Source of the DNA: Botryllus schlosseri
Lineage: Eukaryota
Length of the DNA: 64,000 bases
Direction: 5' to 3'
Assembly: GCA_051294905.1 (NCBI GenBank)
Contig: CM119371.1
Span: 4,590,001 to 4,654,000 of the forward strand
The translations under genes were made by a program, and so were the position numbers. A model generated the notes under the pieces. The model had not been told where the DNA came from, did no database searches, and was given only the letters and a program-made list of their open reading frames with translations. Below, piece after piece: positions 6,361-63,694 of this stretch (the stretch's first letter is position 1; every line of letters starts with the position of its first letter).

Positions 6361-6458
6361 TCAATACCTATAGCTATACCTATATCTATTAGTACTGCCC
6401 GTTCAACTGGAAAGTTAGGGCACATTGCATTGAAACAGCAGTGACGTAATCTTAGCAG

Positions 6459-8017: not shown

Positions 8018-9274
8018 TGTCATAAAGAAAAGCATGATTTGGATCGAGTATCAACTATTGATCACAACTTGAAAGAACGCCAATTGGATATATATTGGAA
8101 AGCATTTACTGGGAATAGTAACCTCAAGCAACATATAAATATGAATGCTGGCATCAAAAATGTTGAATCTGATATATGTGGTGAAGCATTCACTCAGAAG
8201 GGTACCCTCGAGCGTCATATGGATGTGCATGCTGGAATAAACAATCGTGAATGTGATTTACATGGAGAAGCATTCACTAAGAAGGGTCACCTCAAGCGTC
8301 ATATGGATACGGATACTGGCATCAATAATCATGAATGTGATGTATGTGGGAAATCATTCACTAAAAAGCCTTACCTCAAGAGTCATATGGATATGCATGC
8401 TGGCATCAAAAATCATACATGTGCTATATGTGGTAAAGCATTCATACGTAAGAATCACCTCAAGCTTCATATGGATATGCATGCTGGCATCAAAAATCAT
8501 AAATGTGCTATATGTGGTAAAGCATTCACTGAGAAGAGTACCCTCAAGCGTCATATACATATGCATACTGGAACAAAAAATCATGAATGTGATGTATGTG
8601 GTAAAGCATTCACTCAGAAGGGTACCCTCAAGCTTCATATGGATGTGCATGCTGGTATACACAATAGTGAATGTGAGGTATGTGGTAAAGCATTCACTCG
8701 TAAGAGTCACCTCAAGCTTCATATGGAAATGCATGCCGGCATCAGAAATCATGTTTGTGATATATGTGGTAAAGCATTCACTCGTAGAGGTACCCTCAAT
8801 TTGCATATGGATAAGCATGCTGGAATTAAAAATCATAAATGCGCTATATGTGGTAAAGCATTCACTGAGAAAGGTTTCTTGAAACTTCATATGGATAAGC
8901 ATGCTGGCATCAAAAATCATGTTTGCGATATATGTGGGAAGGCATTCACTCGTAAGAGTCACCTCAATCGTCATATGAATATACATACTGGAATAAAAAA
9001 TCATATTTGTGATATATGTGGGAAAGCATTCACTGAGAAGGGTACCCTCAAGCTTCATATGGATATGCATGCTGGTATCAGAAATCATGTTTGTGATATA
9101 TGTGGGGAAGCATTTACTAGAAAGAGGCACCTCAAGCAACATATGGATATGCATGTTTGCATCAAAAATCGTGGTTGTGATATATTTGGGAAGGCATTTA
9201 CTCTTACGGGCAACCTCAATCATCATATGGCGGTGCATGCTGGCACCAAAATTCATTATTGTGATGTACCGTAA
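8018..9274 (+). CDS. Tandem C2H2 zinc-finger protein, terminal exon (10 canonical plus ~4 degenerate fingers)
   Basis: Open frame of 84-bp repeats CxxCGKAFxxxxxLxxHMxxH with HAGIKNH linkers; CTTTTCCGTAG acceptor at 8007-8017 is conserved in the paralog; the TTG start in the ORF track is not a real start; upstream exons not identified. Confidence 0.85.
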   Translation, partial: CHKEKHDLDRVSTIDHNLKERQLDIYWKAFTGNSNLKQHINMNAGIKNVESDICGEAFTQKGTLERHMDVHAGINNRECDLHGEAFTKKGHLKRHMDTDTGINNHECDVCGKSFTKKPYLKSHMDMHAGIKNHTCAICGKAFIRKNHLKLHMDMHAGIKNHKCAICGKAFTEKSTLKRHIHMHTGTKNHECDVCGKAFTQKGTLKLHMDVHAGIHNSECEVCGKAFTRKSHLKLHMEMHAGIRNHVCDICGKAFTRRGTLNLHMDKHAGIKNHKCAICGKAFTEKGFLKLHMDKHAGIKNHVCDICGKAFTRKSHLNRHMNIHTGIKNHICDICGKAFTEKGTLKLHMDMHAGIRNHVCDICGEAFTRKRHLKQHMDMHVCIKNRGCDIFGKAFTLTGNLNHHMAVHAGTKIHYCDVP

Positions 9275-9295
9275 TTTCCCTGTGTAAGACGCCCC
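9269..9295. mobile_element. Tc2/pogo-like transposon terminus supplying the ZNF stop codon
   Basis: TA|CCGTAATTTCCCTGTGTAAGACGCCCC; the same end is present at 62103-62130. Confidence 0.6.
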
Positions 9296-10889
9296 TGCAG
9301 TGCCTGTGACGCGATAGTTCAGACCAGTGACGATATCGTGTGCACGATCCCTATCACAGATGTGATTGCTCAGCCCAACGATTAGGCATATATCATGCGA
9401 ACCAGGCCTGTTGGAGAGTCGACTGTTTGGGTCTGTCGTTGACGCTATAAGTTAGCGAGCGTAGTTCTTAAGTCCTTTTCAAAGTGATGCTGGCTGTCGT
9501 GTGCTGTTTCAGATTGGCGCGCACGTTCCGATGTAGCATTCGCATCCGGTTCATCCGAGCTCTCATAGCGAAAGGGACATCGAACGTTTTCAATCCTTGG
9601 GGAACAATTCTGGCATGAGTTTCGGTTGACGAAATCAAAGGTACCGACCCGCAATTGACCGACTCGACCTCTACAGCATTCAATCGACCAGACTAGTGTT
9701 GACAACAAAATGCGTAGCCGCGTACGAAATACCAGCTACGGTACTGCGAGAGCACAATTCCCAGAAATCTGTTCAAAGACAGACCAGCCCGAGAATCAAA
9801 ACAAATATTACGCTGTTCACCACACCTGAAAGTAAGAGCCAGACATGCCAGACCCATACAAAGTCTGCCTTGGACATACCACAGCATGCAGATGTCCCTC
9901 AGCTATTGAGTAGTAGACGTGCACTGCGCGACTGAAGGATACGTCGATCATGCTCAGTGTACCATACTGATCGAAATATATGTACCTTTTTATTTGCCAC
10001 ACTTGTACATATTAGCGGACTAAGGGTATGTTGCTTACCACTTGAGTCGCGCATTATACTGACACAGAGGTGGTTAGTACAATTTTAGCATGACATACCT
10101 GTACAAGTGTACATATTGGTTTCCAGGAATCCTGTTTGAAGTTAGATATCCTCCCTTGGTGAGCAGTTGTGCCACTCTTGATATTTTCGAGCCACCAATG
10201 GGAAATATTGAGTTATTTCTAGCATTTTGGCTAGAAATTGTGTACAATTTGTATATTTGTTGTGTCTTAGTGTTAGTTGTGTCGTCACTTAAGTAAAAGA
10301 AAATATTTTGAGATTAATGCGTTGCCATTGTTTCGATAATGTGTTGGTGTATTTTGTTAGGCTTGGATAGCCTCGTATTTTCTTATCCTAACATTGTCTA
10401 GTACTCTAGTATGTTAGAGGCCAATAATTGTGTCAGGCAGTTCTATATCTCAATAAAGAGTATATGTTACTTTTCGACCCCGCCTATGTCATTGCAATTT
10501 TCGCGTTGGAAAATTACGTCTCAGTAAAGGAACGTATCATTGCAGTACTGTAAAAATCATCTGTCACTACTCGACTCCGTCAAGACCCATTAACACGACG
10601 ATGTTTAGCTGCTTGCTCCGTCCTGTAATCGCCCTCAACATTGAATATATTTACTACTTGTCTCTCGCTATCATGCCATGTAAGCTTACGTATCTCTCAT
10701 GCTCATTTTTGAGACACATGCAACATATTGAAGTTACTTATTCGATCAATACATGTGAATGAGCCAACAATCGTTCTATATATTCGTTGATGCTGGCAGG
10801 GTACGAACTAACGCCATATGCCGTTGCATCCGTTGAATCTCGACAGTATAGCAGTGGTTATTAGAGTACGGGCGGCATATGGTTTATAT

Positions 10890-11000
10890 CAAAGGTGTCA
10901 AACTCAATTTGCGTCGCGGGCCGGATTCGAACCTTCTCATCGCTCGTGGGCCGCACCAGTCAAATGATTTCAAAATTGTACCTCCAAATCCGTGACCTTG
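10890..11000. mobile_element. Left end of a hAT MITE (same family as 56240-57055)
   Basis: CAAAGGTGTCAAACTCAATTTGCGTCGCGGGCCGGATTC, nearly identical to the start of the 56240 element. Confidence 0.75.
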
Positions 11001-11325
11001 TTTCTCATTCGGATACTTTATTATCACTCCTTTATGTAAAATAGTATAATACAATATATTACGGATCATGGGGTATATTCTAGTTGGAAAAATTTAATGG
11101 CCCGAATTGAATTTAGTCACTTCCCAAATTCGACTACATTGACTTGACTCGAAGACCTGTAAGACTCGATATGACTTGGGACTCGATGTTAGTGACTTGA
11201 TTTGACTCAAGTCACAATAAAAAAATGAGTGACTCGAACTTGACTCGAGTCAAAATCTGTAATGATTGGTGACTCTTTGGTAGTGACACGCTCCCAACAC
11301 TGACCCAACATGATTTTGTCCACAG

Positions 11326-11435
11326 CATGTTGGCTATCGACCCATCTCAATGACCTACCACCAAGCAAGTTGTGTCAACCCACATTTGGCAAGGCTACTC
11401 ACCTCGACAACTACCGACCACCTGCTTGCCTATCA
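11326..11435 (+). pseudogene. PLK1: PLK1-like exon E6 copy (kinase C-terminus), truncated
   Basis: cacag|MLAIDPSQ*PTTKQVVSTHIWQGYSPRQLPTTCLPI vs PLK1 MLQTDPTARPT...GYIPARLPITCL. Confidence 0.8.
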
Positions 11436-12523
11436 TAGGGTTACCATATTTTTGTGGAGCAAATTCCGGACACTCTATAGCGCCCACTAGTGGATTTTAA
11501 AATAAGGTATAACATATTGTCTGTCAATCTGACGTCACACTAGCAAAGCATTGCCCATCGACTGTATTCAGGAATGGAGTGGGATATAGAGCACTGGTGA
11601 TTGCTACTTGCTAGGGCCTGCAATAGATTCCTCCACGGGCCGGATGAAATCATCTGGCGGGCCGTGTCTGGCCTGTCAGGATTGTGTTTGACAGCCCTGC
11701 TATACTCTTAGGTCGGTGCGGCTATCTGTTTATGTGTTTTAATCAGGTCCGAAACAGCATTTTTTCTGTCCCCTTCCGCCTAAAAAAGCACTGATCTTTG
11801 GCCTACCGTCGATGTGACTTGTGGGGTACTTACTAAGATGCATTTGGCTGTTAAATTTTATGTATGAATTATGTCAATAATATCGAATTTTCTATAGATT
11901 AGGCTACTATAAAACGCACCAGCAGGTTTCACATCCGGTGATTTCCAACCTTTCATGGTCGCGACCTCATTTCTCACTTAAAAATGTTCCGTGGCAAATC
12001 TCAAAACTTCATAAGCTGATTACTAAAAAAATTCAGCTTGCCCAAACTTTTACTCACGGCATAGGAAACTGATTACGTCCAACATCATCGCGATCCCCAG
12101 ATAAAGGCGGACGACGCCAAGATTTGAAACCACTGTATGTGACTGAAGCATCCAATCGGCCTTAACCAACTCAAGGAATATACCGTTAGCTTATAATTGT
12201 GATTGCAATCTTTCTTATTCAGTAAATGATGGTTATTTATATTTATTTTGATTGCATTTTTTTGGGCAAGGGTGGTGCCTGGTGCCCATACTAAAATCAT
12301 TATACGTTGCATTAACTCGAGCGCGTGCGAAGAACAATTTTGAATATAGCATAAATCTGCTTGAAAATAATATCGTTTATGTTGATTTACGAAAAACTTT
12401 TGGTCCTGCTTCAAGCCTTCAAAATTCCGGACATCTAGGCATATTTTAGAAATTCCTCCCGGACGCCGATTTTTCAGTGAAATTCCGGACATGTCCGGGG
12501 AATTCCGGACGTATGGCAACCCT
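11436..12523. mobile_element. hAT-type element with TAGGGTT(A/G)CCATA termini, composite interior
   Basis: Left TAGGGTTACCATA, right TATGGCAACCCTA, TCCGGAC subterminal repeats; TSD not recognisable. Confidence 0.55.
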
Positions 12524-12537
12524 ACATTACTCCCGCT

Positions 12538-13844
12538 TTGACCCCTCAGTCAACGTGTCCGCCACCTTGTGCCATTGGAGAAAGGTTTGCTGCCGATGTC
12601 CTGAAGCGTGAAAAACAATGCATTCTCGTGGTGCGCGAAACAGTGTCTTCATTTACCAAATCTATTATCATTACAGACGAAAGAGCGGAGACTCTACGTA
12701 GCGCACTCGTAATCCTGTGTCTAGACCTGCGTCCACTGAACAGCCCGAACTCGGTCATCAGGACGGACGGAGCTACATCGTTTTCAGCGCTGAAGAACGA
12801 CTCGCTCCTCACTACCTACGGCATGGCTGTGGAAACGGGAAGGGTCATGAACGTTAATAAAAATCCCGTCGCCGAAAGAGCAGTTCAAGAACTCTCCAGC
12901 GAGATACTGAAGCTTCAGGGATCCGGCTATCATGGAGGCCAAGTGACTCATCTACAAATTCAAATCGCCACTTGTAACCTCAACAACCGTATCCGCGGAA
13001 ATGGCGTCTCGGCAAGGGAGATCCTGCTTCAGAGAGATCATGTTCACCAACTCCTCTCTCCCAATCGATGATGAAGAGCTGATAAAGAAACAACAAGGAA
13101 CGTAGGACCGCTAATCATCCGGCAAGTGAAGTTGCGAAGGCCCCGAAACGAGAAACGAGGAAATCGGTTCCAGTCGGCGTTGGCGATATCGTTTACCTAT
13201 ACAACGATAAGAAAAAGCACCGAAGCAGGGATCGATATTTGGTGTTGTCAACCGAAGGCGAGTGGTGTAACATATCTCGGTTTGGAGGCAAACGACTGTC
13301 GTATGGGACTTATCGCGTGCGTCAAAATGACTGTTGCTTGGTACCAAACGAAATTGGACCAATAGATCGAACTTTGAATTACTCTGATTCAGATTGCGAA
13401 TCTATCGAGCATGAGCCCGAGATTCTCGACAATGCGTCGATCTCCGACGAAGGGCCCTTGGAAGCATCGACTCCCGACGAACGGCAATATCCCGCAGATC
13501 CTGTCTCCGAACCAGACTCGCAACAACGTCTACCTGACCTCGCATCGGAGAGTCCACCAATACGACCTCGTCGGTCTCTGAGAGTCAGAAAACCGTCTGT
13601 CTGGCAGAAAGATTATGTCATAGACAAATGAAGGAGAAAACGTTGCGCCAATATTGTTTTGTGTTGTGTTTGAACGGAGCCGAATGTTGGCTCCTGTTAA
13701 TTGATTGTTCGCTGATTGCGACTGATTGGTGTCATCGCATAATTACTTTATATAACGGTTGCTCGCGGTGTTGGGTTCTCATCTTTTGCTGCAATAAACT
13801 TCTGTCGTAAGCCGACATCGTTCTTGGTGCCTATAGGGAATACA
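12538..13844 (+). mobile_element. Gypsy-like LTR retrotransposon 3' fragment (integrase, PPT, 3' LTR)
   Basis: Integrase D,D,E: FAADV, IRTDGATSF, NPVAERAVQEL; frameshift/stops after ~13040; purine tract GAAGGAGAAAA at 13630-13640; then a ~200-bp LTR-like segment with TATATAA and AATAAA ending TACA. Confidence 0.8.
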
Positions 13845-13879
13845 GGCTCTATAAGGAAAGGACGTAGTTTATTTTTGTC

Positions 13880-13997
13880 CTGGAAGCCATGGATACCAGT
13901 GTTACTAATCAGGTCTTTGGTCTGACCCGGCCGGGAGTCGAACCCACGACCTACCGATCAAGAAGCCGGACGCTTAACCATTACGCTATCTTGGCGG
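13880..13997 (-). mobile_element. tRNA-derived SINE head (family B)
   Basis: Minus strand has A-box TAGCGTAATGG and B-box GGTTCGACTCCC followed by CGGGTCAGACCAAAGAC. Confidence 0.7.
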
Positions 13998-14339
13998 AGA
14001 AGTTCGCCATGTTAGTGAAGGTTGAAAACCACTGATCTAATATCAGTTTGGCGATTTATTAAATCTATTATTCCACATCTTGCATGGTTATTAACATTAT
14101 CTTCGGTGTGGTCGCCGAGATAAAAAAAAAACTGCCGTCTGTTTGTTGTGACGGTGTGATTCGTTTACGGCTCATTGACCGCAATGTAGATGGGGGATTC
14201 CCCTCTGTGTGAGTGGATATTTGATTGCTCACTGCTCAGCAAAAGTATAGATTACAATACGCTATAGCAAAAGTATAATACAGATTACTGTTATTATGAA
14301 GAAAAAGCTTTATACTTTATGACATGCCATATTAAGAAC

Positions 14340-15350
14340 CAACGTACTTCCTTTATTCACATATGTCTCCCAGACGTCAAAAATGCCGGGAACATCAGAA
14401 GCAGGATAAAAGTCGAAATCACGAAATTCCTCTTCGGTATAGATCCCAAGATTGATTACACCAAAATCACCCTGCCCAAAGAGCAGGGAGGACTCGGGAC
14501 CATCGACATCATTACAATGGCTGACTTGGCGTATACAAAGCCGGCGGTCGAGTACTTGAAAAGGGCGAACAAACAACCGGAAAGCAACTTGGACAGAAGG
14601 CTCGAACACCAACTGGCAATCATTTTAACAAGGTACCGAAACCATGATATCAATAACGCCATACCACATACATCACAGCCGCTCAGTCACTGGAACGATA
14701 CCAAGGAACGACTGGAAAGCATGAAGTTCGCAAAGGACGACTCGAAACAAAAGCAAGAACAACGCTACAAACTCACACTGTCAAGAACATGCAACAGAGA
14801 GATTGGCGAAATGATCGGACCGAGCTGGGAAAATATCAACCACACATGCATCACTTACCATCAGAGGCAGTTCAACTGGGAAGTAGCGCACAGACTCCTC
14901 CGAACCAACGAAGGCTTAAAAACCCAGTGGGCAACAAAAACAAGAGACTGCGCCTTGTGCGAAACCGAGATAGAGATGCATGAGCCTATATTTGTGACAT
15001 GTAAGTCCACTAAAAATCTCCCAATATCACTTTAGATTCGTGGCAAGAGGTGACGCAAAGAAGACTGCCAAAAAGTGACTTCCAAGCAATACTCGGCATG
15101 AACATCGCAACCGCAATGACAATTGAGCAAAAAAAATACGCTAACAATATTGATCACTGTTTACAAACTGGCAGTCTGGCGAGCAAGGGACATAAATAAA
15201 TACGAGAAGCGACCGATTGACGCGGAATGGATAATAACATCACTACAACAAAGGCTCCGTATGCGACATAGAACAAACCCAGGTGATCTCACGGAAAGAA
15301 CGCTTACAAGGATACAAGATGAAATATCGAATGCATCAAGATCGATGTGA
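14340..15350 (+). mobile_element. 5'-truncated L1/Tx1-clade LINE, 3' part of ORF2
   Basis: LPKEQGGLG motif, HRLLRTN, C-terminal zinc knuckle CALC..EMHEPIFVTC, KLAVWRAR; stop at 15033-15035 and later frameshift. Confidence 0.8.
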
Positions 15351-15886
15351 GTCGTAGATGGTTTTTGCCTTACAGCACTGACTGGGAAGACTCACAATAA
15401 ACCTCCAAATGTCAAGCTATATACTTAATGACATAATCTTTTACCAGTGTCACAGACTAATATCATTTATCCCACGCGACTTCGTATTTCTCAATTTGCG
15501 AATTATCACAAAATTATCTCTCTACTAGAGTATACATCGAGAAGGCAGGATGTCACCGTCACCGCTTATGATAAGTTCCGCTATTATAATTCAATCAGTT
15601 TTACCTGAGGACCTCAAGTTGAGGTTCTGTAACGCAGACTTCTACAAATTACCGACCTGGTCAGCTGATGGTCAATTAAGTGCTAGTTCCAGTTCTAGCT
15701 GTCTAGTCTTCTAGTCCAGTCTTTGAACTACAGTACAAGTATGAATCAAGTTTGTTATGTATATTTTTTAGACAATAAAACAATTTTAGCCAGTAAAATT
15801 TAACCATGAAGTAAGTTATTTTTGAACAACCCTATTAGACCATATCAGTTTCAGTATCTGTTAATGCACGATATTTCATTTTGCAG

Positions 15887-16093
15887 GCTGAGTTGTGCTA
15901 GATTTCACAATAATGTAAGATAAAGTTTACCATCGCTACCGGTACTAAAAAGATCCCGAAAGTCGTGTGTGACGACTGTACTGGAAAACGATACACAAGA
16001 GGTACATTTCTTGGCAAAGAGGGATTTGCGAAATGCTTTGAAATCACGGAAGTCGTAACAAAAGAAGTGTTCGCTTGTATAATTGTGCCAAAG
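15887..16093 (+). pseudogene. PLK1: PLK1-like exon E1 copy 1 (Gly-rich loop)
   Basis: ttttgcag|...[47 protein letters not shown]|gtgagt vs PLK1 [19 protein letters not shown]...KEVFAGKIVPK; catalytic Lys changed to Ile. Confidence 0.9.
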
Positions 16094-16608
16094 GTGAGTC
16101 AAGTGCAGACGCAAGGAATCTATGTGCCCAATATATGTTGTATGCATCAATGCCTTCTTTTGTTAACTGTGTTGAAACCATGGATTTGATCGGAAGCTTA
16201 CATGTTGTCATTCACAAAGCCAGTCTAACACAACCAAACAAACCATCTCTTGAGCACTCTTGTGCCTGTCATGTCGTCAGATTCTACAATTCAGCTTCTA
16301 TTCCTACTTCAACACACAGTCCCCCTAGGGCCATGTATGCAACTGCTCATGTAGAATTACATTTTGATTAGTTTCAATGGTAACTCTCTTCATCTCAAGT
16401 CTAAGTTCAAGTGTAATAGTGTTCAAGTGGCTAAATAATTTTGTTGTTTCTGTCTCTTTTCCCAACAGGAACTACTCACTTATCAAAACTCGCAACTGCA
16501 ACTAGAACCACTCACTTTATGAAATGTGCAACTAAAACTATTCAAAATAACAGTAGTCAGTCAACCGTCAACTCATTAGATTAAAATTCGTTCAAGTCTA
16601 AATTTCAG

Positions 16609-16749
16609 GCACTTCACAAGAATAAGCACGAGGAAGAGAGAGAGATCGGTCGCCATAGCAGTTTGAATCACAAGCACGACATTGGATTTCAAGGATTTTT
16701 CCAAGAACAGGATTTCGTCTACATTGTTCTCGAGTTGTGCAAAAGACAG
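16609..16749 (+). pseudogene. PLK1: PLK1-like exon E2 copy
   Basis: tttcag|ALHKNKHEEEREIGRHSSLNHKHDIGFQGFFQEQDFVYIVLELCKRQ|gcaagc. Confidence 0.9.
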
Positions 16750-17754
16750 GCAAGCGTATTTCCTCATTACAACTGTAATGTATATCTAACTGTAGTGATC
16801 GCAATTACATCAGATTTGTAGCGTTTATTAGCTAGCCCACTTGGACAACTAGATAATACCAGTTGTCTAATTAGACTAATCATAACCAAATGCCGTTAAT
16901 CTAATAATATTCTAATTTGAGAAATACTTTTATGCTGTCATTTCAATTCTAGTATAATTTATGGTGTACCTGTACCTGTACAGGAAAACTGTATAGTGTG
17001 AAACTAGCCTACTTCGGTGTACAGACGCAAGTCATTCTGTTGTTCATGAGAATGGACTCTTATTTGGTATGAAGTGATTTTGATCTTTACCGCATTGTTT
17101 TACGAATTAAGTGATTCTGATCTAATTTCGATAACTTGTGTAGCTATAATTTTAATTCTAATCTAGTTTGAAAATTTTCTTTAATAGCCCGACTCTGATC
17201 ACTAGAACTGGCACAAATATTCGAGTACGGTACTCAAATCTGAATCTGTATTGATTCTAATAATTCGAGTCATGAGAGATGGTTTTTTAGAATACTGTGC
17301 TTGTACGCTCCTGGCCACAAGAGGAAAAGATGATTAACAATAAACTGAACTGAACGAAGAGTAAATTTACCAATTAAATAATTACACTTTCAATAGTATT
17401 TCTCATCGTGGATATCTGTAAACCTCAATTGGTCGTGTCACAGCATACTAAACATGTGTAGTAAGGTACTCGCGTGAGTGGAAATGACATAGGCTTATCT
17501 GTGAAATCGTTAGGCTACCGTATCAACCAGCAACATTGCACAAAGTACAAAAAGATGGTGTTATCGTATATTCTTTGTGATTGCATGAAATGTGCATATT
17601 TGAACTTCACACAGCATTCATGCATATTTATATGTCGTCATAGTGACTATCATCGAATACTTGATTCGGAATTGAACACTCAGGCAGACCTAGTCGACTT
17701 TGCCCAAACCTAGTCAGCAAATTACGAATCACATATTTTGAAAGCTCATTCTTT

Positions 17755-36948: not shown

Positions 36949-38424
36949 GATAATGTACCTCTTCGCCCCATATTGTCTATGTGTGGATCGGCACAACATA
37001 ATTTAGCCAAATGGCTTAACACCGTCATTGAGCCAGTTCGATCCTTGTATACGCACCACTGTGTTCGCGACTCGTTCACGTTTGTAGACGAATTGAAACG
37101 CGCCAAATTAAATCCGTCCAATGTATTTCTTGGCTCATTTGATGTGAAAAGTCTTTTTACCAACGTACCATTGTCGGAAACTTTCGAAATCTGCGCAGAC
37201 GCACTTTATGATGGCACGCTTGAACCTCCGAAACTACCGCGTGAAATATTTCTTGAATTGTTGCAAACTGCTACTAGTAGCGTTGAATTCAGCTTCAATG
37301 ACACGATGTTCCGCCAATGCAATGGCATTGCGATGGGTTCACCGTTGGGACCTAGTTTGGCCGATATATTCGTGGGATACCATGAAAAGAAATTGTTTGA
37401 AAACGTCGCAAAACCTCTCCTCTATTTTAGATATGTCGATGACACCCTTGTTGCCTTTAAAAATGAGCGAGAGTGTGATAATTTCTTTGAAAAATTGAAC
37501 TTTCTCCATCCAGCTCTACAATTTACCGTGGAAAAGGAAACTGATGCTGCCCTTCCCTTTTTAGACGTCTTAGTAGAGAGATCAGGACAAACGTTTCTAA
37601 CGTCGGTGTACAGAAAACCTACCTTCACTGGTCATTATATCCGTTGGGATTCATTCTGCCCGAAGCGGCGTAAACTAAACCTTATTTCATCTCTTGTCAA
37701 TCGGGCCTTGCGCATTTGTTCACCGGAAAAACTGTCACGTGAATTGGATGATATCCACTTGATTCTGTCCAAAAATGGCTATCCAGACCAGATATTAAAA
37801 TGCTCCATCTCCAGGGTTTTGAAAAAATCGGATATAGCTCCCGAATACGGACCAGAAAAATGCCCGGCATTTTTACACTTATCTTGGCTAGGTAACGTGT
37901 CCAACCGTTTTGAAAAACTCATTAAGTCGGCTGTTCACCGTTGTTATTACAGCGTAAACACGCATGTGGTGTACACAACGAAACCCATGTTGCCCAACTC
38001 TCGAAAAGATGTACTTCCTGCCTTTAATGCAAGTAATGTTGTTTACCAATACAAGTGCCACTGTGATAGTAGGTATGTAGGACGTACATCTCAAAGATTG
38101 TTTGAGCGTATCAAGCAGCATATCCCAAAATTGATTCGGTCAAAAACATGCGCAAATACTCGCACGGAGCTCACACGCCAGTGCAAATTGGCTGCCAAAA
38201 CAGACTGCTATGACGATTACCAAGCATATGCTTCGTCAATCGGTCAGCATTTGAGTGAAAACCTCGCCTGTGCACAGCACTATGATGACAATATGTTCAC
38301 TGTCATTGCGCGTGGTAGGTCTTCGTTTCATCTAAAAGTGCTGGAGTCTACTATTTTTCAGTTGAACAAACCTATTTTATGCAGACAAAAAGATTTTCTC
38401 TATAACCTACAAATTTCCCATTAG
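36949..38424 (+). CDS. Penelope-like reverse transcriptase + GIY-YIG endonuclease (N-terminally truncated, uninterrupted)
   Basis: VPLRPI, SFDVKSLFTNVP, GIAMGSPLGP, RYVDDT, LPFLDV, VYRKPT, then NVVYQYKCHCDSRYVGRTSQRLFERIKQH and SSIGQH. Confidence 0.93.
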   Translation, partial: DNVPLRPILSMCGSAQHNLAKWLNTVIEPVRSLYTHHCVRDSFTFVDELKRAKLNPSNVFLGSFDVKSLFTNVPLSETFEICADALYDGTLEPPKLPREIFLELLQTATSSVEFSFNDTMFRQCNGIAMGSPLGPSLADIFVGYHEKKLFENVAKPLLYFRYVDDTLVAFKNERECDNFFEKLNFLHPALQFTVEKETDAALPFLDVLVERSGQTFLTSVYRKPTFTGHYIRWDSFCPKRRKLNLISSLVNRALRICSPEKLSRELDDIHLILSKNGYPDQILKCSISRVLKKSDIAPEYGPEKCPAFLHLSWLGNVSNRFEKLIKSAVHRCYYSVNTHVVYTTKPMLPNSRKDVLPAFNASNVVYQYKCHCDSRYVGRTSQRLFERIKQHIPKLIRSKTCANTRTELTRQCKLAAKTDCYDDYQAYASSIGQHLSENLACAQHYDDNMFTVIARGRSSFHLKVLESTIFQLNKPILCRQKDFLYNLQISH

Positions 38425-41562: not shown

Positions 41563-42060
41563 TGGGTTGTGTTGTTTCTGGAGCCATAACCGTATGAAAG
41601 ATGTGCAAGTTGCAATATGTATCTTTTATGCTACCGCAAATAACATAATGTCAGATTACATTTGTTATTTTTTGACGATGCCTATTTCATTGCACTTTGT
41701 GACAATGCTGTGTGTTTATCACGACTTCAGAGAAATGTCATTTCCACTAACACTGTGCTTTATTACTATATATTTCTTAAGCTGTGATGCGGCCAATCGA
41801 TGTTCACAGCCTTCCTCAGTGGAAAATAGTATTCAAGTTATAGTTCTTGTTATTAAATTTACTGTTGGTGGCAAGAAGCGTATCATTTCATTACTGAAAA
41901 AAAAATCATCTCTCACTACTCGACTCGAGCCATAGTGCCATGGTTACATTGAAAAATCTAGTAACTGGACTCCATTTAGAATATGCAATGACTCAATTAT
42001 GACTTGTGACTCGAACATACTGACTCGTTTGCAACGCTAACCTATCATGATTTTTCCCAG

Positions 42061-42201
42061 CATGTCTTCTATTTACCCATCACAACGACTTACCGCGAAG
42101 CAAGCTCTGTCCAGTGACTTTTCCACGGCTACATTCCACAACAACTACCGACAACCTGCTTACCTGATTATCGGAAAGTCAACTTGAGCCAAGTTGCAAC
42201 A
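42061..42201 (+). pseudogene. PLK1: PLK1-like exon E6 copy
   Basis: ccag|MSSIYPSQRLTAKQALSSDF/HGYIPQQLPTTCL...|gtgaga. Confidence 0.8.
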
Positions 42202-43937: not shown

Positions 43938-44285
43938 CGACTTGACTCGAGTCAAATTGTGTAATAACGTCATATGACTTGTGACTCGAAGATTTACTTG
44001 ACTTGATCCGAGTGACCGTCTAAAACCTAGTGACTTGACTCGAGTTAAACTATGCAATGACTCGATATGACTTGTGACTAGAAAATAATAACTTGACTTG
44101 ACTCGAGTCAAAATATGCAATGACTCGATATGACTTGTGACTAGAAAATAATAACTTGACTTGACTCGAGTCAAAATATGCAATGACTTGATATGACTTG
44201 TGACTAATAAATAGTAACTTGACTTGACTCGAGTCAAGATTGGCAAAGACTTGGATGACTTGTGACTTGAAGGCAACTTGATCCA
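43938..44285. repeat. GACTTGACTCGAGTC-rich MITE relic with ~63-bp tandem repeats
   Basis: Three near-identical ~63-bp units at about 44030-44240; replaces the 3' part of exon E5. Confidence 0.85.
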
Positions 44286-47200
44286 AACAACACTGACCTA
44301 CTGTAATTTTATCCACAGAATGTTATCTATTGACTCATCTCAACGACCTTCCGGAAAGCAAGTTGAGTCCAAAGCCAGTTTTTGCAAGGCTACATACCTC
44401 AACAACTACCGAACACCTTCTTGACTACCTCTATTACATTATCACAACACATCAACTCGAGACGACGTTCAATGGTGAGCTTTTTATAATTCTACGATAA
44501 CGTTGTGATATATTGCGGCCTGACTTGGACAACTAGATACTTTTAAGCTATTCAAATTGCAATACAGTTACAATTATAAATACAGTTTTTTGTTCAACTT
44601 GGACTAGAATTAGAATTATAGCTACACAATATTTGCCAAATTAGATTAGAATACTAATTATAGCTAGATATATAGTTTTCTTCAAAATAGTTTATGATCA
44701 AAATCATTGCTACTCAGGTTTTTCGAAATTACATTAGAATTTGATTTACTGAATTCGCGAAAACTATGAAATTGCATCAAGTTCGGTACATTTAAAATCA
44801 GAGTCCATTCTCATAAGCACGGGAATGGCAAATATCTGCTTGGATTGTTTTACATGATACAGTTCTCTCGTAGCAATTTCAGGAAAATCAGAAATTAGAT
44901 TAGAATTAAAATAATAACGTAGAAACATTTCACAAATTGAATATGAATTAGCTTACAGGTATTTCGCTGTAATTAGTGTAATTAAGCCGGATCAGTGTGA
45001 TTGGACCAAATCAAGTTTCTGTGTGAATCGATTCTGAGTCTAGTACTGAGTGTCGAGTAGACTAATCTAGTATCGGTCCCCGACAAGTAGTAGTTTACCG
45101 ATCATATCGAGTCTGTATCAGACTTTGAAAGAAATATCGGTATTGGCCATGAGCGGCGATACAATATCAACAATCTTGATGACGTCACAACTTGGTAGTA
45201 GGGAGTTAGACAACTCTAATCTATGACTGTTTGACTGGGGACATTCATATGTCATAATTCTAGACTACAGACATAGATGGTCGAAGTAGTCAGTAGAGTT
45301 TTCACTCAATTACAGGTGGCTTGGCTATGCTAGGTGGCTACTTCAGGTTCACGGCAATATATTGGGTGTTGTTTCAAGCCCTGTGGATGGCATTTTGTGT
45401 TTGTTTTTTTATGTAGACCGGCTGATTACAAAGGGTTGATCTAGATACCAGACCTTTTGAGTGTCTACCTAATATATCTGCTTTTTCTGTGACTTCAAAA
45501 TCTGATATTGGTCATGCTCTTGTCACGATACATTACAGAGCCTGCCAATCTTGCTAAGCTGTAGGGCTGGGTAAAATCGAGTATCTGGGTGATTTGAATC
45601 CGAATGTAATGTTAGATTTCAGTATAGTATTCCAGTACCCCGTACCATGAAGTTAATAACAGTTGTAATAACTTTAAAAGGTGACATAAGTATTGCTTGT
45701 GGCCGCAAGGAAAATGCCAGATACACTTCATGCAAAATAATTTCGTATTTTTAAAGCATCACTGTTTTGAAGCTATTGTGCGAGTTGATCTCTAAGAGAA
45801 ATATTTATGCTGAGATATGACTAACGGCGGTTTCGGGTAACCAATAGCAAAAGAGAAGTATTGAAACTATTTTTCGTTATTAATTTATTACGCTTGTCGC
45901 TTAGTGTAGGTGACGATGCCTGATAATCACGCTGTGGATTTGGAAACGTATGGTGTGTGACTTCGAATTTCAAGAATCCTATTAATTCACACTCTAATCA
46001 ATTATATGAAGTTTTACCAACTCATCACAAAGGTGATGCTATTGTCGACTAGTTGTATCAATTTAATCTTGTTATATTTTACAGGTGCTACTAATACAGA
46101 GACACAGACACTTGTTGGTGACAAGCCAGAGCGACCATCATATGCGGTAACAAATCACCAGACTTCCATATGACAGAATTGGATGCTCAGCTTCAGATAT
46201 TGATCAATAACAATTCAACGAGCAGCTTGCTATCATCTATCAATATGGGTGAGTCTTTGTGTAATCTATGATATTTTTATTTCGGATAGCTCTCTGAAAT
46301 GTAGGGTATTTCTACGAACCAGAGATTTAATATCTTGAAATCCGAAACTGGTATTGGGTCAAATCAATTCATGAGTGACAACTCTGTAGCAGACTTGGAC
46401 AACTTGAAAATTTCCACCTTTTCAAAATTACATTAGAATAACAATTGAAGCTCAATATTTTTTTTACATTAGACTAGAATTAGAATGATATCTGCATAGT
46501 TTTTTTTTTCAAACTTGGTAAAAATTAGTATTAGAGCTACACAGTTTTTTTTCTTCAAATTAGATTATAATTAGAATTACTGGAATTGCAAAAACTTGGA
46601 CTTAGAATCAAGTTCATTTCGTATCAAATTGTAGTTCGTTCTTATAGGCATGAAAATGGGAAATCTCGGTGCAAGCTAGACTCGCTTCGCACTATACAGT
46701 TCTCCTGTAGTATTTTCAGGAAATCCGGAAATTAGATTACAATGAGAGCATATAAACATTTCACAAATTAGATTATAATTTTCTAGTTATCCAAGTCTGC
46801 TCCGATTAAAATATCAGAAATTTCCTGTTACAATCCAGTTTATAAAATGATATTGACGCAAATCTGGCGATAACCAGATATCCGAAATTATTCTGAGCCA
46901 GTGCTGATCTTAAAATTCAAAAGGAAATGTTTAAATTCAAAGTTATTGGGAATTCCGTGTCCATGTTGTGTTAAACAGATACATCTCAACTCTTGCTGGT
47001 GTGTGACTTCACCTAAAGGATTCTTAGCCCTGGCTGACTTTTCAATTTTCGTATTTCAAAACTCCTTTCAATTCAAGTGATGAGGCAGAAGACCCAGCCG
47101 ATCAGCAAATGGGCGAATTTGACGGATAAAGCAGGATTTGGTATGGAAATCTTGGTATCAGGTTTGTACAGATCACAGGATTTTTAAATTAGAGCTAGAA

Positions 47201-57262: not shown

Positions 57263-60200
57263 CAGTGCTGTTCAACCTGTGTGACGGTTTGCACTTGTGC
57301 GAATAAAAAAAATTGCAGTGCGAATGACGAAGGTGGTGCGAATGAAAATCTGGATCAAGTGCGAATGAAAATTGGGATTAAATGTTCATTTTTCTGACGT
57401 GGAATAATTCAAATGAGCCTAATAGGAAATTTAAGAATAGTGTAACCTTTGTAGTTGCGACGCAATCGTAAAAACTTGATACGACGCACCACTATAATTA
57501 TTACATAACCAAAGCCTGGTTTGGAAGCTGGTGTAGTGACAGTATAGAGATCTCTACAATCTCTATAGTGGCAGACATACAGTATATCAGCCCGTCTGAG
57601 CCTGCGCCAGACTGACAAAAATGACGTCAAATTGACTTTCTGCTTTCTTTCGCTAATCAATCATCATATTTCCGTAATAACTGTTCGATTAGCGCGAGGC
57701 ACGAGGATAGTAGTAAATACCATCATTACAGACTCACATTTGCAAGTTACTGTAACGTAAAATTTTACCCCTTCAAGGGTTATCAAAGTTTGGATCGCAA
57801 ATGGTATAATTTTGGGTCGACACGGTGCCAGAGCTATCTGTTTATATGTATGCAATAATTATTGAATTTATTGCAAAAAATCCTGCGATCGTTTTTACAT
57901 ATCTAAGATCACTGTGTTGCGTACTATAGCCAATAAGCGAGACACGCAATAAATACGGCTTCATCATGAGAATTCATGATAAGATTGTTTCGACTGTTTT
58001 TTTTTCTTCTGGAAAACATGATCGAAGACCGTTGGGATGAACTAGTGTAGGGGTGTGCAACGAGCGAATTCAGGCCTATGAGACACATTCATTTCGAGGC
58101 CAACCCTTTTCTGCGTCGGGACACAAGAAGACGTAAAGTTTTGGCGAACAAACCGCTGGCGAACTTAAAAACCTCGGTTTAAAAATGGCCGATGCTGGAT
58201 GGCCGAACATTTCGAGATGGATTGGATATGCACCGTTGTCGGCACGGAATAGTCCCGTTCCTACATCTGAGTAGACAGTAGTACAACTGCGATACGCAGA
58301 GGAATTTAATTCTCCCTAATTTGAAATCGCGAGCGTCAGACATGTTTTGTAGAGCTGTGATGGTAGAATTGTGGTGTGCGTGTTCTGTACGTCATACATG
58401 TCCGTAAAATCGTAGCATACAACTGTAATATTAAAAATAAATTCTTTTTCATGGGTAAGGCTCGGGTCGCGAAATGCTACAAAAACTCAGATTTTAGTGG
58501 TAGTCTAAAAGCTGCTTTACCTGTATAAAATGTCGTGCATTCTCAAGTTAGATTGAGCTAAAGGGCAGAACACACAGTATCGTGAGTTATTTGATATTCT
58601 CATAAACTTGCGAGACAGAAGTTGGAGCAACGTATCATAAGGTAGCGAGCTCTAATGTGCCTGCACTTTATGTTCCAAAGACATAAGGCAAAAACGTCAA
58701 CACAAACATGTTGGTTTGACATCCTTTCGACAAACTGGAGCCTCGCGGGACCTTTGTGTCAGCTCTCATAAACGATTTCTGCCAGCAAGCATTTTTCACT
58801 CGCGAAAAATACGCTATATTTTTGATAGGACTGCAGAACAGATTTTAAGACCTGGCCATCCAATCACTCAGGCGCGTATCCAGAGTGCGAAAAAGGGGGG
58901 GGGGTTGCGTTACGAAATTGGCTATTGTGACGTCATCATTACGATCACTCGTCTCCACGCCATGACGAATATTTATATATTATAGTTTAATAATAAACAG
59001 AGATTTGCGGTGAGTGGGAGATGTACGAATACGATACGAACATTGCCTGAAAATCGCGTTTCTTTTACGGTATGATTGAAAGAAATTCGTAAAGGCTCAC
59101 ATCTAGTCCGTCTTCAAGCGCCTAGTTCCGGTCAGAGATGCGCGATTTTGTTGGGCTTTGACGATATTATGCGCACGGTCGGTAGTATCGCAGCGGACGA
59201 ACAAGCGCGGAATGGGGCGGTAGCATAAACGAGGGCCATCGCGATCGCCACAGAGAGGTGTGGTGTGAACAGTGTACGTCGTATACGAATGTGTGCTTTT
59301 CGATGGCTTTACAAGCCATACGGCTGAGCGTGTAGTGTGCGCGAAGATAATTAGACCTTCATTGCAAGCACGCAAGTCAGTCAACTAATACAGAGTACAC
59401 ACTGGGATAATAACTTGATCGACAGAGAAACTTGTCAGCCGATATAATTAGGTTAACTTTACTACTAGGCCTACTCAATTCTCCCGTTCAGCGACAACAT
59501 AGGCCTGTATTTGGACGACAGCAGGTCACCTAACAATCGGGAACGTGGATTGCTAGGCTTGTATTTTGAAATGTGAATGTCAATCCTAGGCCATTTCTCG
59601 CCAATAATCGCGAATACAATGTGGATTTCAGAATAGCATTGTCGTACTGGTGCTGTCGTGTCTGCGTCTCGCTGATCAATCAACACGCCGCGTGCAATTC
59701 TAAATTAGGATTTCAAGGCGAGCAGGTGCAGCGAATTCGCGAGCGATGTTGATTGCCGACAACTTCGTCTTTGCAATTACGTATCGCGTCGGCCAATTAG
59801 ATTAGACTTTCCTAAAATGCGTCTCTCGTTTTAGCAAGGCGAGAGAGAAATCGAGGGAAGAAAGTTGAGAACGTCAGCAATTGCCACAGCTGAAATGTAG
59901 CTGAACAAGCGCAGAATTCGTATGGAATTAGCGAATTATAATGACCTATTTTATCCTTTCGACTAATTCGGCGCATAATTCCAATATTTGGTAGGGGTGT
60001 TAGTCCCCTTAAATAACATTAAGACGCCATATTCGCCTTCTCATACGTAAAAACGAATATGTTAAACTAATAAATTAGCAAATATTAGAGGCTATATTGA
60101 CATCAATTTTTAGGATTTAGAAAAGGGGGGGGGGGTTCCGACCCCCTAAAAACCCCCCCCTGGATACGCCACTGCAATCACTAGTAGACATTGTTGTACA

Positions 60201-60440
60201 AATTCCCAACAACATTGTTTGGCTGAGAAGGGTTTTAGTGAAATAATTGAAAGCAATACGAGCGAAAAAAGTTGCCTTTTTAATGAGACACTAGATAGCT
60301 TGAGCTACATAGTTGCCAATTTGTTGCACATCTGAAAAAAATGTTGTTCTTTTTTATAACAATTTTCGATTAGTTTGTGCGAATGAAATTTATCTTACAA
60401 AAAAAGTGCGAACGGAGCTCAAAAAGGTTAAAAAGCACTG
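57263..60440. mobile_element. Non-autonomous hAT element upstream of ZNF copy 2
   Basis: Termini CAGTGCTGTTCAACC / GGTTAAAAAGCACTG, perfect TSD TTGTACTC, GTGCGAATGA subterminal repeats. Confidence 0.9.
58869..60174. mobile_element. Nested non-autonomous hAT element
   Basis: Termini CAGGCGCGTATCCAG / CTGGATACGCCACTG, perfect TSD CAATCACT. Confidence 0.9.
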
Positions 60441-60604
60441 TTGTACTCTATTTTGTTATGATAATTGCTCTGTCTACAATCTTGTAATGCTGTTTGTTTA
60501 AAATAGTTCTACACTTGATGCATTGCAGATGTAGCCATACTATAATTGAACCAAGTTTATATGCTGAAATACCGAAGATCTGTGGCTGTGGGTCTTTTCT
60601 CTAG

Positions 60605-62108
60605 TGTCATAAAGAAAAGCATTCTGTGGATCCAGTATTAACTATTGATCACGACTTGACAGAACGCCAATTCGATATATATTGGAAAGCCTTTAATGGG
60701 AATAGTAACCTCAAGCTTCATTTGGATATGCACGCTGGCATCAGAAATGTTGAATGTGATGTATGTGGTAAACTCACTCCGAAGGATACCATCAAGCGTC
60801 ATATGAATATGCATACTGGCATCAAAAATCATGTTTGTGATATCTGTGGGAAAGCATTCACTCAGAAGGGTACCCTCAAGCATCATATGGATGTACATGC
60901 TGGGATAAAAAATCATATGTGTGAAATATGTGGTAATGCATTCACTCAGAAGGGTACCCTCAAGTTGCATATGGATATTCATACTGGCATCAAAAATCAT
61001 GTTTGTGATATCTGTGGGAAAGCATTCACTGAGAAGGGTACCCTCAAGCATCATATGGATGTACATGCTGGAATCAAAAATCATACATGTGCTATATGTG
61101 GTAAGGCATTTACTCGGAAGGATACCATGAAGCATCATATGGATATGCATACTGGCATCAAAATCATATTTGTGATATATGTGGGAAAGCATTTACTGAG
61201 AAAAGTACCTTCAAGGATCATATGGATATGCATGCTGGCATAAAAAATCATGTTTGTGATATCTGTGGGAAAGCATTCACTAGGAATGGTCACCTCAAGT
61301 GTCATATGGATAGGCATGCTGGAAGCAGAAATCATACATGTGCTATATGTGATAAAGCATTCACTCAGAGGGGTGACCTCAAGCTTCATATGGATATGCA
61401 TGCTGGCATCAAAAAGCATGTTTGTGATATCTGTGGGAAAGCATTCACTAAGAATGGTCACCTCAAGTGTCATATGGATAGGCATGCTGGAAGCAGAAAT
61501 CATACATGTGCTATATGTGATAAAGCATTCACTCAGAGGGGTAACCTCAAGCGTCATATGGATAGGCATGCTGGAAGCAGAAATCATACATGTGCTATAT
61601 GTGGTAAAGCATTCACTCAGAGGGGTGACCTCAAGCTTCATATGGATATACATGCTGGCATCAAAAAGCATGTTTGTGATATCTGTGGGAAAGCATTCAC
61701 CAAGAATGGTCACCTCAAGCGTCATATGGATAGGCATGCTGGAAGCAGAAATCATACATGTGCTATATGTGGTAAAGCATTCACTCAGAGGGGTGACCTC
61801 AAGCTTCATATGGATATACATGCTGGCATCAAAAAGCATGTTTGTGATATCTGTGGGAAAGCATTCACCAAGAATGGTCACCTCAAGCGTCATATGGATA
61901 GGCATGCTGGAAGCAGAAATCATACATGTGCTATATGTGGTAAAGCATTCACTCAGACGGGTACCCTCAAGCTTCATATGGATAGGCATGCTGGGAGCAA
62001 AAATCATGCATGTGCTATATGAGATATAGCATTCACTCGGAAGGGTACCCTCGAGCAAAATATGGCTATGCATGCTGGCACCAAGATTCATATTGTCATA
62101 TACCGTAA
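60605..62108 (+). pseudogene. Tandem C2H2 zinc-finger exon, paralog of 8018-9274 (~14 canonical fingers); frameshifted, so either a pseudogene or an assembly indel
   Basis: Same acceptor CTTTTCTCTAG and N-terminal leader; A5 to A4 change at 61160-61163 splits ORFs 60626-61243 and 61222-62022; TGA at 62020-62022 in the last finger. Confidence 0.85.
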
Positions 62109-62839
62109 TTTCTCATGTATGATACGCCCCGCGAGACTTGCGACACGGTAATCCTTGTTAATACTGGCAAAAAAAAATCATAAATGTCAAGCTTTCTGAA
62201 ACCGCCAACATCAAGCACGTGGATTGAAGTGTTGAGTTCTAAAGTCACGCAAGGTCATGATCAAGTAATTCGAGTCGTGCATGATGCATCCACCTTAGAA
62301 TTGTTTCGCTGCTAGCAGTGTCAAGTGATTGCCCTTGAGAGCGGACGTATCACTACATTTCTCAAGCTATCATACTGTATGAGCCAACATATTTTTCATG
62401 TACACTTTATGATAGTCATGCAACATATTGCATTAATACTGGGTAATATGAAAGAGACAAGTATTGTTGTACATTTTTTGAGTATTGATGTACATTTGTT
62501 GACAAGCGTTCTACATTTCTCCAATATCCTTGTGATCGGTTTTCGTTTGTGTGATGATCTTGCAGCCATTGCTAGCTAGTAATTGCTTAGTTAGTCCTGA
62601 ATAGTGGTAGTTCTGTCTGTCTGATTCTTCAGTCATTTTGTACCGATGTTCATGTAGAAAGCAAATCTGATTCCTATAAAATATAACGATTGGTCTGCTT
62701 CGGAATCAAATCTGGTAGTTGTGTTTCGTTTGTTACTGATTTTCAAATGTCGTTAGTGATTTAGTTGTGCAGTTTAAACATTCAGTAGTTTGTATAAGTC
62801 TGGTGCCAGCTTGTTTATGTACGATATTTCATTTTGCAG

Positions 62840-63028
62840 ATTGATTAAATCGATTATATCCGAAAAAGTATACCTTGCAACGAAAGAGATCTCTGAATTC
62901 ATGTGTGATGACTCTACTTGGAACCATACAGGAGAGATCCATTTCTTGGCAAAGGCGGATTTGCCAAATGCATTATACTTATTGAAGTCAGAACAAAACA
63001 AGCTTTCGCTTGTTAAAATATGCCAACG
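62840..63028 (+). pseudogene. PLK1: PLK1-like exon E1 copy 2
   Basis: ttttgcag|..TKEISEFMCDDST/PYRRDPFLGKGGFAKCIILIEVRTKQAFAC*NMPT|gtgagt. Confidence 0.9.
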
Positions 63029-63560
63029 GTGAGTCGTCTTTGTTGACACTATAGAATCTGTGTTACTGATTCTATTTGTCACATTCACTAATGCCATTTT
63101 GTAAAGACTCTAGTGAAAACAAATGTGGCCAAGAACTTGCAAGTTGCCATTTCTACATGCTTTTTATAACTAGAGCTGAGTTGATTTTGGGATTTTGAGG
63201 CGATAACGATGAAACTGAAACCAAACACCTTCGCCGATAACCTCGATGTTTATTTAGATTAGGCCACATTTTCACAAATATAACAGCTTCACAGTCATTG
63301 CTATGCCTAGAACGGACATGAAATAAACTAGAAAGGCTGCATCTGGACACCTGTAAGATATAAGAAGTCTATTAATATTTCCAGTGTAGCAGTCGCACAG
63401 TATTTTGTGACCACGGTATGGCCACGCTGAAATTATATATATATTTGCTTCTCATGGACGATACCAGTCTATCTTCCAAAGTGTGATATCGATACGGTGT
63501 TGTTAGCAAACCTGATGGGCCTGGCAGTAGATGCGAGCATTAATTTAGCGTTCATTTTAG

Positions 63561-63694
63561 GCACTTCTTGTGAATAAGCATCATAAAGACGAAATGTGTC
63601 AAGAGACCAGTCTCCATCGCGGTTTGTTTGATTTTATGGATTTTTCAAACTCAAGAATTTCTTCCATATTGCTCTGTAGTTGTGCAAAAGAAGC
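63561..63694 (+). pseudogene. PLK1: PLK1-like exon E2 copy
   Basis: ttag|ALLVNKHHKDEMCQETSLHRGL../GFFKLKNFFHIAL*LCKRS|gtaaag. Confidence 0.85.

Follow-up and report, generated by a model that had tools for sequence, protein, structure and literature searches.

Lineage-specific clusters of poly-zinc-finger (poly-ZNF) genes, such as the mammalian KRAB-ZNF and the cyprinid FiNZ-ZNF clusters, grow by tandem and segmental duplication. Here, a stretch of 64,000 nucleotides from the tunicate Botryllus schlosseri was analyzed (assembly GCA_051294905.1, contig CM119371.1, here C1, C1:4590001-4654000; hereafter the window). In this stretch two ZNF exons are each followed by degraded first and second exons (E1 and E2) of the gene for the mitotic kinase PLK1. 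The genome searches were carried out on the 495.5-Mb assembly, and coordinates given without a contig are positions in the window. The original prediction had taken the two ZNF–PLK1 pairs for copies of one duplicated cassette. Our analysis favors another account, to which we assign a probability of about 0.75. The locus would be a product of ordinary segmental duplication and pseudogene decay, with one chimeric unit made of a ZNF and an already dead PLK1 piece. The second pair of the window would be a copy of this unit, and the adjacency of ZNF and PLK1 in the first pair would be secondary.

The ZNF exons resemble the KRAB-ZNF and FiNZ-ZNF clusters in several respects. The C2H2 fingers, 28 residues each, form long arrays within a single large terminal exon, and there are very many clustered paralogues. 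The zinc ligands are conserved with a ratio of non-synonymous to synonymous substitutions (dN/dS) of ~0.6, and the finger number varies from 10 to 27. Unlike in KRAB-ZNF proteins, the inter-finger linker is H-AGIKNH-x-C throughout and the canonical TGEKP (TGEKPY/F) is absent, the host is a tunicate, and neither a KRAB nor another N-terminal domain was found by a Pfam scan that covered the finger exon only. Among the libraries searched, no protein exceeded 46% identity or shared the leader. A phmmer search with ZNF copy 1 returned 165,972 matches, all of them generic poly-ZNF proteins with the best 150 at 46% identity or less, which informs only that no close relative exists in these libraries. 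The PLK1 pieces are like unprocessed pseudogenes in segmental duplications. They keep introns, splice sites and the 5' flank, inherit shared lesions, and adjoin the parent genes on the same contig. Unlike usual pseudogenes of this kind, their exon order is heavily scrambled, and E1 occurs at 37 distinct places genome-wide (two E1 searches merged by hand), an unusually high number for an essential single-copy kinase. A third likeness is to chimeric units from dispersed-repeat recombination: the ZNF and PLK1 halves overlap in an element of ~120 bp that belongs to both parents, although the recombination event is deduced here from this overlap.

The ZNF leader was found at 19 places in the genome, and 10 kb around each of the 17 places outside the window were mapped for landmarks. 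At 12 of the 19 places the leader, the ZNF exon, the native ZNF 3' end, two spacers (A and B), E1 and E2 follow each other colinearly. These cassettes are L009, L011, L014, L016, L017, L018, L019, L020, L021, L023, L025 and window copy 2. Six are on the + strand and six on the - strand, and all lie on C1 between 4.11 and 6.47 Mb. Thus the search for further ZNF–PLK1 pairs that had been proposed was successful and an amplified unit of both exists, but of the two window pairs only the second belongs to it. Window copy 2 has the cassette layout as well as an E1 of the cassette clade with a stop at the catalytic-lysine codon; copy 1 has neither. Five other leader places (L010, L012, L013, L015 and L022) revealed no PLK1 piece in the 8.5 kb downstream of the leader.

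Window pair 2 (60439-63691), with the insertion in front of it, is composed of the following parts.

57263-60438 (no strand assigned): intronic insertion directly in front of ZNF copy 2, absent from the twin L009
60439-60604 (+): conserved intron tail and acceptor of ZNF copy 2
60605-62110 (+): ZNF exon copy 2, whose frame is interrupted by the loss of one base from the A-run 61160-61163 and by a TGA at 62020-62022
62136-62470 (+): spacer A, a ZNF-derived 3' flank, found likewise downstream of ZNF-only genes at C1:26.14 Mb
62471-62592 (+): junction zone, which occurs downstream of ZNF-only genes and also upstream of ZNF-less PLK1 pseudogenes
62593-62839 (+): PLK1-derived 5' flank and acceptor
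62840-63028 (+): PLK1 pseudo-exon E1 copy 2, a member of the cassette clade
63561-63691 (+): PLK1 pseudo-exon E2 copy 2, with stops and a frameshift (tblastn)

L009 is the direct twin of window copy 2, lies at C1:5.217 Mb and is 95-97% identical to it. The core of the upstream insertion (58869-60174) is a young dispersed element of ~1.3 kb, of which at least 38 copies at 86-95% identity were found on many contigs. Its insertion in front of ZNF copy 2 postdates the separation from the twin. ZNF copy 2 contains 14 intact fingers in two frames and 16.7 copies of the 84-bp unit, including four near-identical two-finger blocks. Its E1 has lost the start codon (ATA), has a 1-base deletion and carries the stop at the catalytic-lysine codon (AC*NMP).

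The two halves of the cassette could be traced to different contexts. ZNF-only tandem genes at C1:26.14 Mb, arranged with a period of 5.9 kb, carry the sequence that had been described as a common 3' breakpoint of the two ZNF exons, and behind it spacer A together with the initial ~110 bp of spacer B. Therefore, these parts are native ZNF flank. The 3' end is indeed shared by both exons, but it is the native end of the ZNF frame and is found likewise in the ZNF-only locus L013. The remainder of spacer B is carried by ZNF-less E1s. Both contexts overlap at 62471-62592: the match of L010 reaches 62592 (88.8%), the match of L046 starts at 62471, and the second-E1 units start at 62568. Pieces of this junction zone also sit in introns of intact PLK1 (intron matches of L026). 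Since both parental contexts carry 62471-62592, the cassette joint is located inside this shared element, and we infer that it was made by recombination between repeats. Upstream of the exon, the homology between cassette ZNFs and ZNF-only units extends over up to 1.3-1.4 kb in some copies.

A joint in a dispersed repeat would also be expected if the cassette were gene-fragment cargo of a transposable element, taken up by a Pack-type or Helitron-like capture. The copies occur in both orientations, tens to hundreds of kb apart, and single ZNF or E1 copies are present on C17, C13 and C2, which is in line with such an origin. However, all 12 cassettes are confined to one 2.4-Mb stretch of one contig, and two of the off-cluster contigs are just 46 kb and 18 kb long and may be unplaced pieces of the region. 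Moreover, the ends of the cassette unit differ between copies. Homology runs into further PLK1 exons to an extent that is specific for each copy, and common termini were not seen. We consider transposon cargo highly improbable and retain segmental duplication as the source of the copies. An insertion of ~0.8 kb interrupts E1 in three cassettes (L017 6873-7926, L021 4720-5605, L023 4016-5071). Nine bases are repeated at both of its edges in two of the three, and the shared insertion marks a sub-lineage.

Window pair 1 (8018-16752) and its surroundings are built differently.

6375-11088 (+): copy-1 ZNF unit, the stretch common to the close paralogue L022 (C1:5.55 Mb); homology stops at 11088, before any PLK1 exon
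7880-8017 (+): conserved end of the intron before ZNF exon 1, with its splice acceptor (ttttccgtag); 18 other copies, ZNF-only loci among them, align to it
8018-9274 (+): ZNF exon copy 1, open over 418 aa, with 14.0 repeats of 84 bp
10602-10730 (+): faint trace of the ZNF 3' flank, corresponding to positions 167-295 of spacer A, 69% identical to 62302-62430
11139-11432 (+): isolated piece of PLK1 pseudo-exon 6 containing a stop codon (tblastn, aa 250-291 at 11303-11428)
11450-13853 (no strand assigned): two nested dispersed repeats of ~1.1 kb and 1.33 kb (11450-12524 and 12524-13853) that inflate the copy-1 gap
15683-15886 (+): 5' flank and acceptor of the type seen in the ZNF-less PLK1 pseudogene clade of the copy-1 E1, common to L032-L036, L039-L042 and L047 at 74-82%
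15887-16093 (+): PLK1 pseudo-exon E1 copy 1, with an ATG at 15913 followed at once by TAA
16606-16752 (+): PLK1 pseudo-exon E2 copy 1 (tblastn, aa 59-110, 52% identity)

ZNF copy 1 has 10 fingers with an intact C2H2 signature, and about four fingers lack one zinc ligand. In Pfam, 8018-9271 matched zf-C2H2 with E 3.9e-73 and 238 bits (cut-off 25.2) in 11 stretches. By megablast, L022 is 96.2% identical to the window over 8090-11088 and 92.8% over 6375-9265, and the final match stops at 11088, which leaves 4.8 kb to the copy-1 E1. The pseudo-exon 6 fragment in this gap is outside the cassette layout and has DNA matches to 44093-44427 and 41999-42165. The gap, which the original prediction held to be inflated by transposons, does contain dispersed repeats: 11450-12524 and 12524-13853 gave 45 matches among 40 scored of 5,470 first-look candidates, on many contigs at 83-96% identity. 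The copy-1 E1 has GKEG in place of the glycine loop, and its catalytic lysine is replaced by isoleucine (ACIIVPK). Its peptide still matched PLK1 kinase chains of the PDB in phmmer (E 4.9e-14); in a word-indexed search of longer proteins it gave no match. An inverted twin of 6379-16367 is located at C1:5266353-5276352 (L024) and is 99.65% identical over all 10 kb compared. The order and orientation of L024, the twin of copy 1, and L009, the twin of copy 2, do not fit one simple block duplication.

Next to the layout, the likeness of the two pairs was compared directly. The ZNF exon regions 7880-9295 and 60455-62130 are 79% alike over ~1.4 kb, and intron tail and leader are shared, as predicted. 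It is likewise correct that on the same strand each ZNF precedes an E1, behind which E2 lies. Identity between the two E1 regions (15859-16100 and 62812-63035) is 71%. The acceptor motif ACGATATTTCATTTTGCAG, which had been put forward as a common feature of the pairs, does occur exactly twice in the window (15868-15886 and 62821-62839; chance expectation 0.02). However, it is not specific for these pairs. With up to three mismatches it is found in 29 of 33 pseudogene E1 rows from all clades, and the two intact PLK1 genes differ from it at 11 of 19 positions. The motif is therefore a mark of the whole pseudogene lineage.

These similarities would be expected if the window pairs were two copies of one cassette and copy 1 was merely stretched by transposons. 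Order and strand are equal, leader, acceptor motif and E2 are shared, repeats fill part of the copy-1 gap, and a weak colinear remnant of spacer A (69%) is left. Against this, the 331-bp spacer B that precedes E1 in copy 2 is missing in copy 1, so that the pairs are not colinear, and the copy-1 E1 has the 5' flank of ZNF-less copies, 175 bp of which (15683-15859) are common to its clade. The homology to L022 ends before any PLK1 exon is reached.

The E1 tree likewise speaks against one cassette. The alignment behind it has 35 rows and 265 columns and excludes three short pieces (L027 73 bp, L048 93 bp, L045 117 bp). All 33 pseudogene E1 rows fall on one side of a 100/100 branch and the two intact genes on the opposite side. 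The 12 cassette E1s and one extra row form a 100/99 clade, and the copy-1 E1 groups with its twin and seven ZNF-less E1s in a 99/97 clade. The two clades have different inactivating lesions. Constraining the copy-1 E1 into the cassette clade costs 58 log-likelihood units (approximately unbiased (AU) test, p-AU 2e-15). Also the ages of the two duplications are discordant, as the path from copy 1 to copy 2 measures 0.43 substitutions/site for E1 vs ~0.22 for the ZNF leader (tree branch lengths). Judged from sequence, the two ZNF–E1 pairs of the window are not copies of each other, and there is hardly any chance left for one transposon-stretched cassette. Within the 12 cassettes, a comparison of ZNF and E1 trees gave four agreeing terminal pairs (L009-W2, W2 being window copy 2; L011-L020; L017-L023; L018-L019). 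Therefore, co-duplication inside the cassette is supported, but the copy-1 E1 remains outside the cassette clade. In the ZNF-leader tree, the copy-1 group (100/100) is placed inside a 100/99 clade that holds all cassette ZNFs. The example illustrates that recurring neighbors in a duplication hot spot can be separate in origin, and that splice motifs may be family-wide.

The lesions also date the death of the PLK1 parts. In the cassette clade the catalytic-lysine codon is a stop in 12 of 13 E1 rows; L009, the thirteenth, is truncated at this point and uninformative. A one-base deletion in E1 is common to 10 of the 12 cassettes. In the wider clade of copy 1 a stop is found at codon 2 in 10 of 12 rows. 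A different stop codon is shared within each clade, which places the death of the PLK1 parts before their amplification. Both window E1s are similar to the N-terminus of the PLK1 kinase, yet neither keeps an open reading frame (ORF) with glycine loop and catalytic lysine. On our account the PLK1 pieces have no function. The idea that the pair had once been a functional unit does not hold for the ancestor of today's copies, which already had the stop at the catalytic lysine. A chimeric ZNF–PLK1 protein was considered as well and rejected, as a native stop ends the ZNF exon and the PLK1 part was dead in the cassette ancestor. PLK1 is also not simply a hitchhiker on the ZNF, since at least 23 of the 37 E1 places are without a cassette ZNF.

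The ZNF family itself is large. A first look gave 1,282 candidate loci, and the 100 that were scored yielded 192 matches at E 1e-30 or better. Dense groups are located on C1 at 10, 26, 28.7-28.9, 32.4-33.5, 34.8-35.3, 36.9-37.2 and 41.1 Mb and on other contigs, and the genome E1 searches found no PLK1 E1 at them. Hundreds of ZNF paralogues of the same type are far from any PLK1 piece. Such unlinked paralogues and discordant duplication ages are the two observations that the original prediction had named as contradicting it, and both were made here.

We then asked how well the finger arrays are preserved. The prediction that the ZNF stays largely open and PLK1 decays was borne out insofar as the finger arrays have survived far better than the PLK1 exons, although most ZNF frames are broken. 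Intact fingers number 12 to 27 per cassette. Among the eight cassettes with a located array end, 62-95% of the 84-bp units are intact (own arithmetic), vs a mean of 24-38% in simulated neutral decay with d 0.08-0.12 substitutions/site, which is half of the E1 distances of 0.17-0.23 in the cassette clade. Read from the acceptor, the ZNF frame stays open over 380 aa or more in just four of the 12 cassettes (L011, L014, L023 and L025; range 380-777 aa), and in the other eight it breaks at or before codon 212. dN/dS was 0.65 for L025-L023, 0.63 for L012-L023 and 0.59 for a ZNF-only pair. The pairs L011-L020 and L012-L015 were dropped, as an insertion or frameshifts spoil their alignments (51% and 64% identity). 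Copy 1 and L022 differ by 2 synonymous and 11 non-synonymous changes, a ratio of ~1.3 that looks neutral. Other frames of the arrays are open as well, the minus strand at 8354-9451 (365 aa) and 61135-62112 (325 aa) and a second forward frame over 213-261 aa. Long open frames in finger arrays are therefore weak evidence for coding when taken alone. No upstream coding exon, start codon or transcript of the cassette ZNFs was found by inspection of the frames, leader search and four RNA runs, and leader residues 1-60 gave no candidate in a word-indexed search of proteins of 229-732 aa. In summary, the ZNF arrays were kept intact for much of their history by selection, in-array turnover, or both, and several copies have since died.

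One explanation for this preservation is that selection for new ZNF genes drove the cassette amplification with dead PLK1 as a passenger, and that several cassette ZNFs work today. The finger integrity, the dN/dS of ~0.6-0.65 between open cassette copies, the four open frames and the ZNF upstream region kept in some copies would all agree with it. In contrast, PLK1 pseudogenes amplified equally without a ZNF, most cassette ZNFs are broken and lack a recognizable 5' exon, start codon or transcript, copy 1 looks neutral, and in-array duplication can mimic preservation. We regard this scenario as possible but rather unlikely. A related and similarly doubtful idea is that the family is a fast-evolving tunicate poly-ZNF repertoire, engaged in an arms race with repeats like the KRAB-ZNFs. 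In that case new members would be born in the dead-PLK1 hot spot, and the cassette arrays would be working genes now or were so recently. A large tunicate-specific ZNF family that resists decay may still merit testing as an invertebrate-chordate counterpart of the vertebrate repeat-silencing ZNFs.

Segmental duplication with pseudogene decay, which we prefer, would have proceeded as follows. A non-functional PLK1 duplicate would have been copied many times in a hub at C1 4.05-6.47 Mb, fragmented and invaded by repeats. Once, a repeat unit of the large, species-specific ZNF family, in which the finger exon is preceded by as much as 1.3 kb and followed by the 3' flank, would have been joined to the 5' flank of one dead PLK1 copy. 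Together with the rest of the region, this chimeric unit would then have been multiplied, giving 12 copies or more and both orientations. Window copy 2 would be one of these cassettes, whose ZNF has since been broken and which received a young insertion upstream. Window copy 1 would carry a ZNF of the same lineage that lost the downstream part of the cassette. Since the E1 located 8 kb downstream is of a different, ZNF-less clade, the adjacency of ZNF and E1 in copy 1 is secondary.

Several points weigh against this account. In the ZNF-leader tree the place of the copy-1 group among the cassette ZNFs is an open polytomy; consequently, it is an assumption of the account that the copy-1 ZNF descends from a cassette and not from a sister ZNF unit. 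The grouping used in the AU test was set by the hypothesis of the original prediction, yet the test was run once the tree had been seen. For 17 ZNF-less E1s 851 bp each were examined, and the absence of a ZNF rests on match lists that are lower bounds. Ongoing selection is hard to reconcile with the small number of cassette ZNFs, 4 of 12, whose frame is open from the acceptor, and turnover within the array can renew intact fingers without selection, as the near-identical two-finger blocks of copy 2 indicate. In four RNA runs the depth was 0.4 or less over ZNF exon 1 and about 0 over E1/E2, with 96-99% of mapped reads fitting only partly and no positive control gene included.

Finally, near-identical twins (99.65% over 10 kb) could be assembly duplicates. 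If part of the copy number were an assembly artefact, from uncollapsed haplotypes or mis-joined repeats, this would explain the inverted twin of 6379-16367, the almost identical E1s of L011 and L020, and the E1 copies on the tiny contigs C94 and C183. Most copies, however, are 15-30% apart and have private insertions and distinct lesions, which assembly errors cannot create. We therefore judge such an artefact improbable.

The surroundings of the cassettes were analyzed with respect to PLK1. Of the 37 E1 places, 33 lie on C1 between 4.05 and 6.47 Mb, and the other four on C2, C13, C94 and C183. Two apparently intact 11-exon PLK1 genes were identified by tblastn at C1:6285472-6298495 (+; loci L026/L027) and C1:5807150-5790873 (-; L029/L028). 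The best matches of the polo-box exon of intact PLK1 were tunicate PLK1 proteins, with 79-82% for Ciona, Styela and Clavelina and 85-86% for others. The two genes, in opposite orientation, encode an identical E1 peptide; a 230-base E1 stretch of coding and flanking sequence is just 90% alike in DNA. A partial PLK1 copy begins 3.9 kb beyond the first gene (L027 8957-9074). Thus, an unusual pile-up is documented, in which 37 first-exon copies of an essential mitotic kinase lie beside two apparently intact genes. A full-text literature search for PLK1 pseudogene amplification in tunicates, judged from the result listings, returned nothing relevant.

In the window, tblastn with the PLK1 protein P0002 detected 22 pseudo-exon pieces. 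All are on the + strand, they contain stops, and their order is scrambled. Most of them fill the space between the ZNFs.

16600-50216 (+): at least 17 PLK1 pseudo-exon pieces between both ZNFs, scrambled and with repeats interspersed (tblastn with P0002, self-blast), in the order E2, E3, E4, E7, E3, E6, E3, E6, E3, E4, E6, E3, E4, E7, E9, E11

With a threshold of E 0.001, a genome search for the polo box (PF00659) gave no match in the window. By tblastn nothing more than degenerate pieces of E9 and E11 was found, at 48387 and 50076, both in front of ZNF copy 2. Pseudo-exons could not be counted by a genome search with the whole PLK1 protein, as other kinases dominate its results. For annotation, the PLK1 pieces described here should be masked as pseudogenes. 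Polo-box exons with 81-83% identity to PLK1 were also observed at C8:20711127, C12:20420043 and 20461280, and C16:22464334 and 22489149. Two of these three contigs hold inverted pairs and some of the matches contain a TAG. These exons may be further PLK1-derived copies outside the C1 cluster.

Additional features of the window were noted. A 116-bp segment (13882-13997) was covered by RNA reads with a mean bin depth of up to ~870 in one run, and its surroundings had none. The reads continue into unlike sequence on both sides, one of which resembles what we take to be a cDNA template-switch adapter. The segment may be a copied fragment from the 5' end of an abundant RNA. Pieces resembling it were seen in L012, L013, L014 and L019. 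A search of Rfam over the whole window, including 13882-13997, gave no match. Pfam analysis of 20 window ORFs revealed ZNF families and RVT_1 only, with zf-RVT and DDE below threshold. For the ORF 12481-13071, which looks like an integrase, the Pfam scan gave no confirmation. The RVT_1 match (E 4.7e-10, above the cut-off) is located among the PLK1 pieces at 36949-38424 (+), in an open frame of 491 aa that is possibly a young retroelement.

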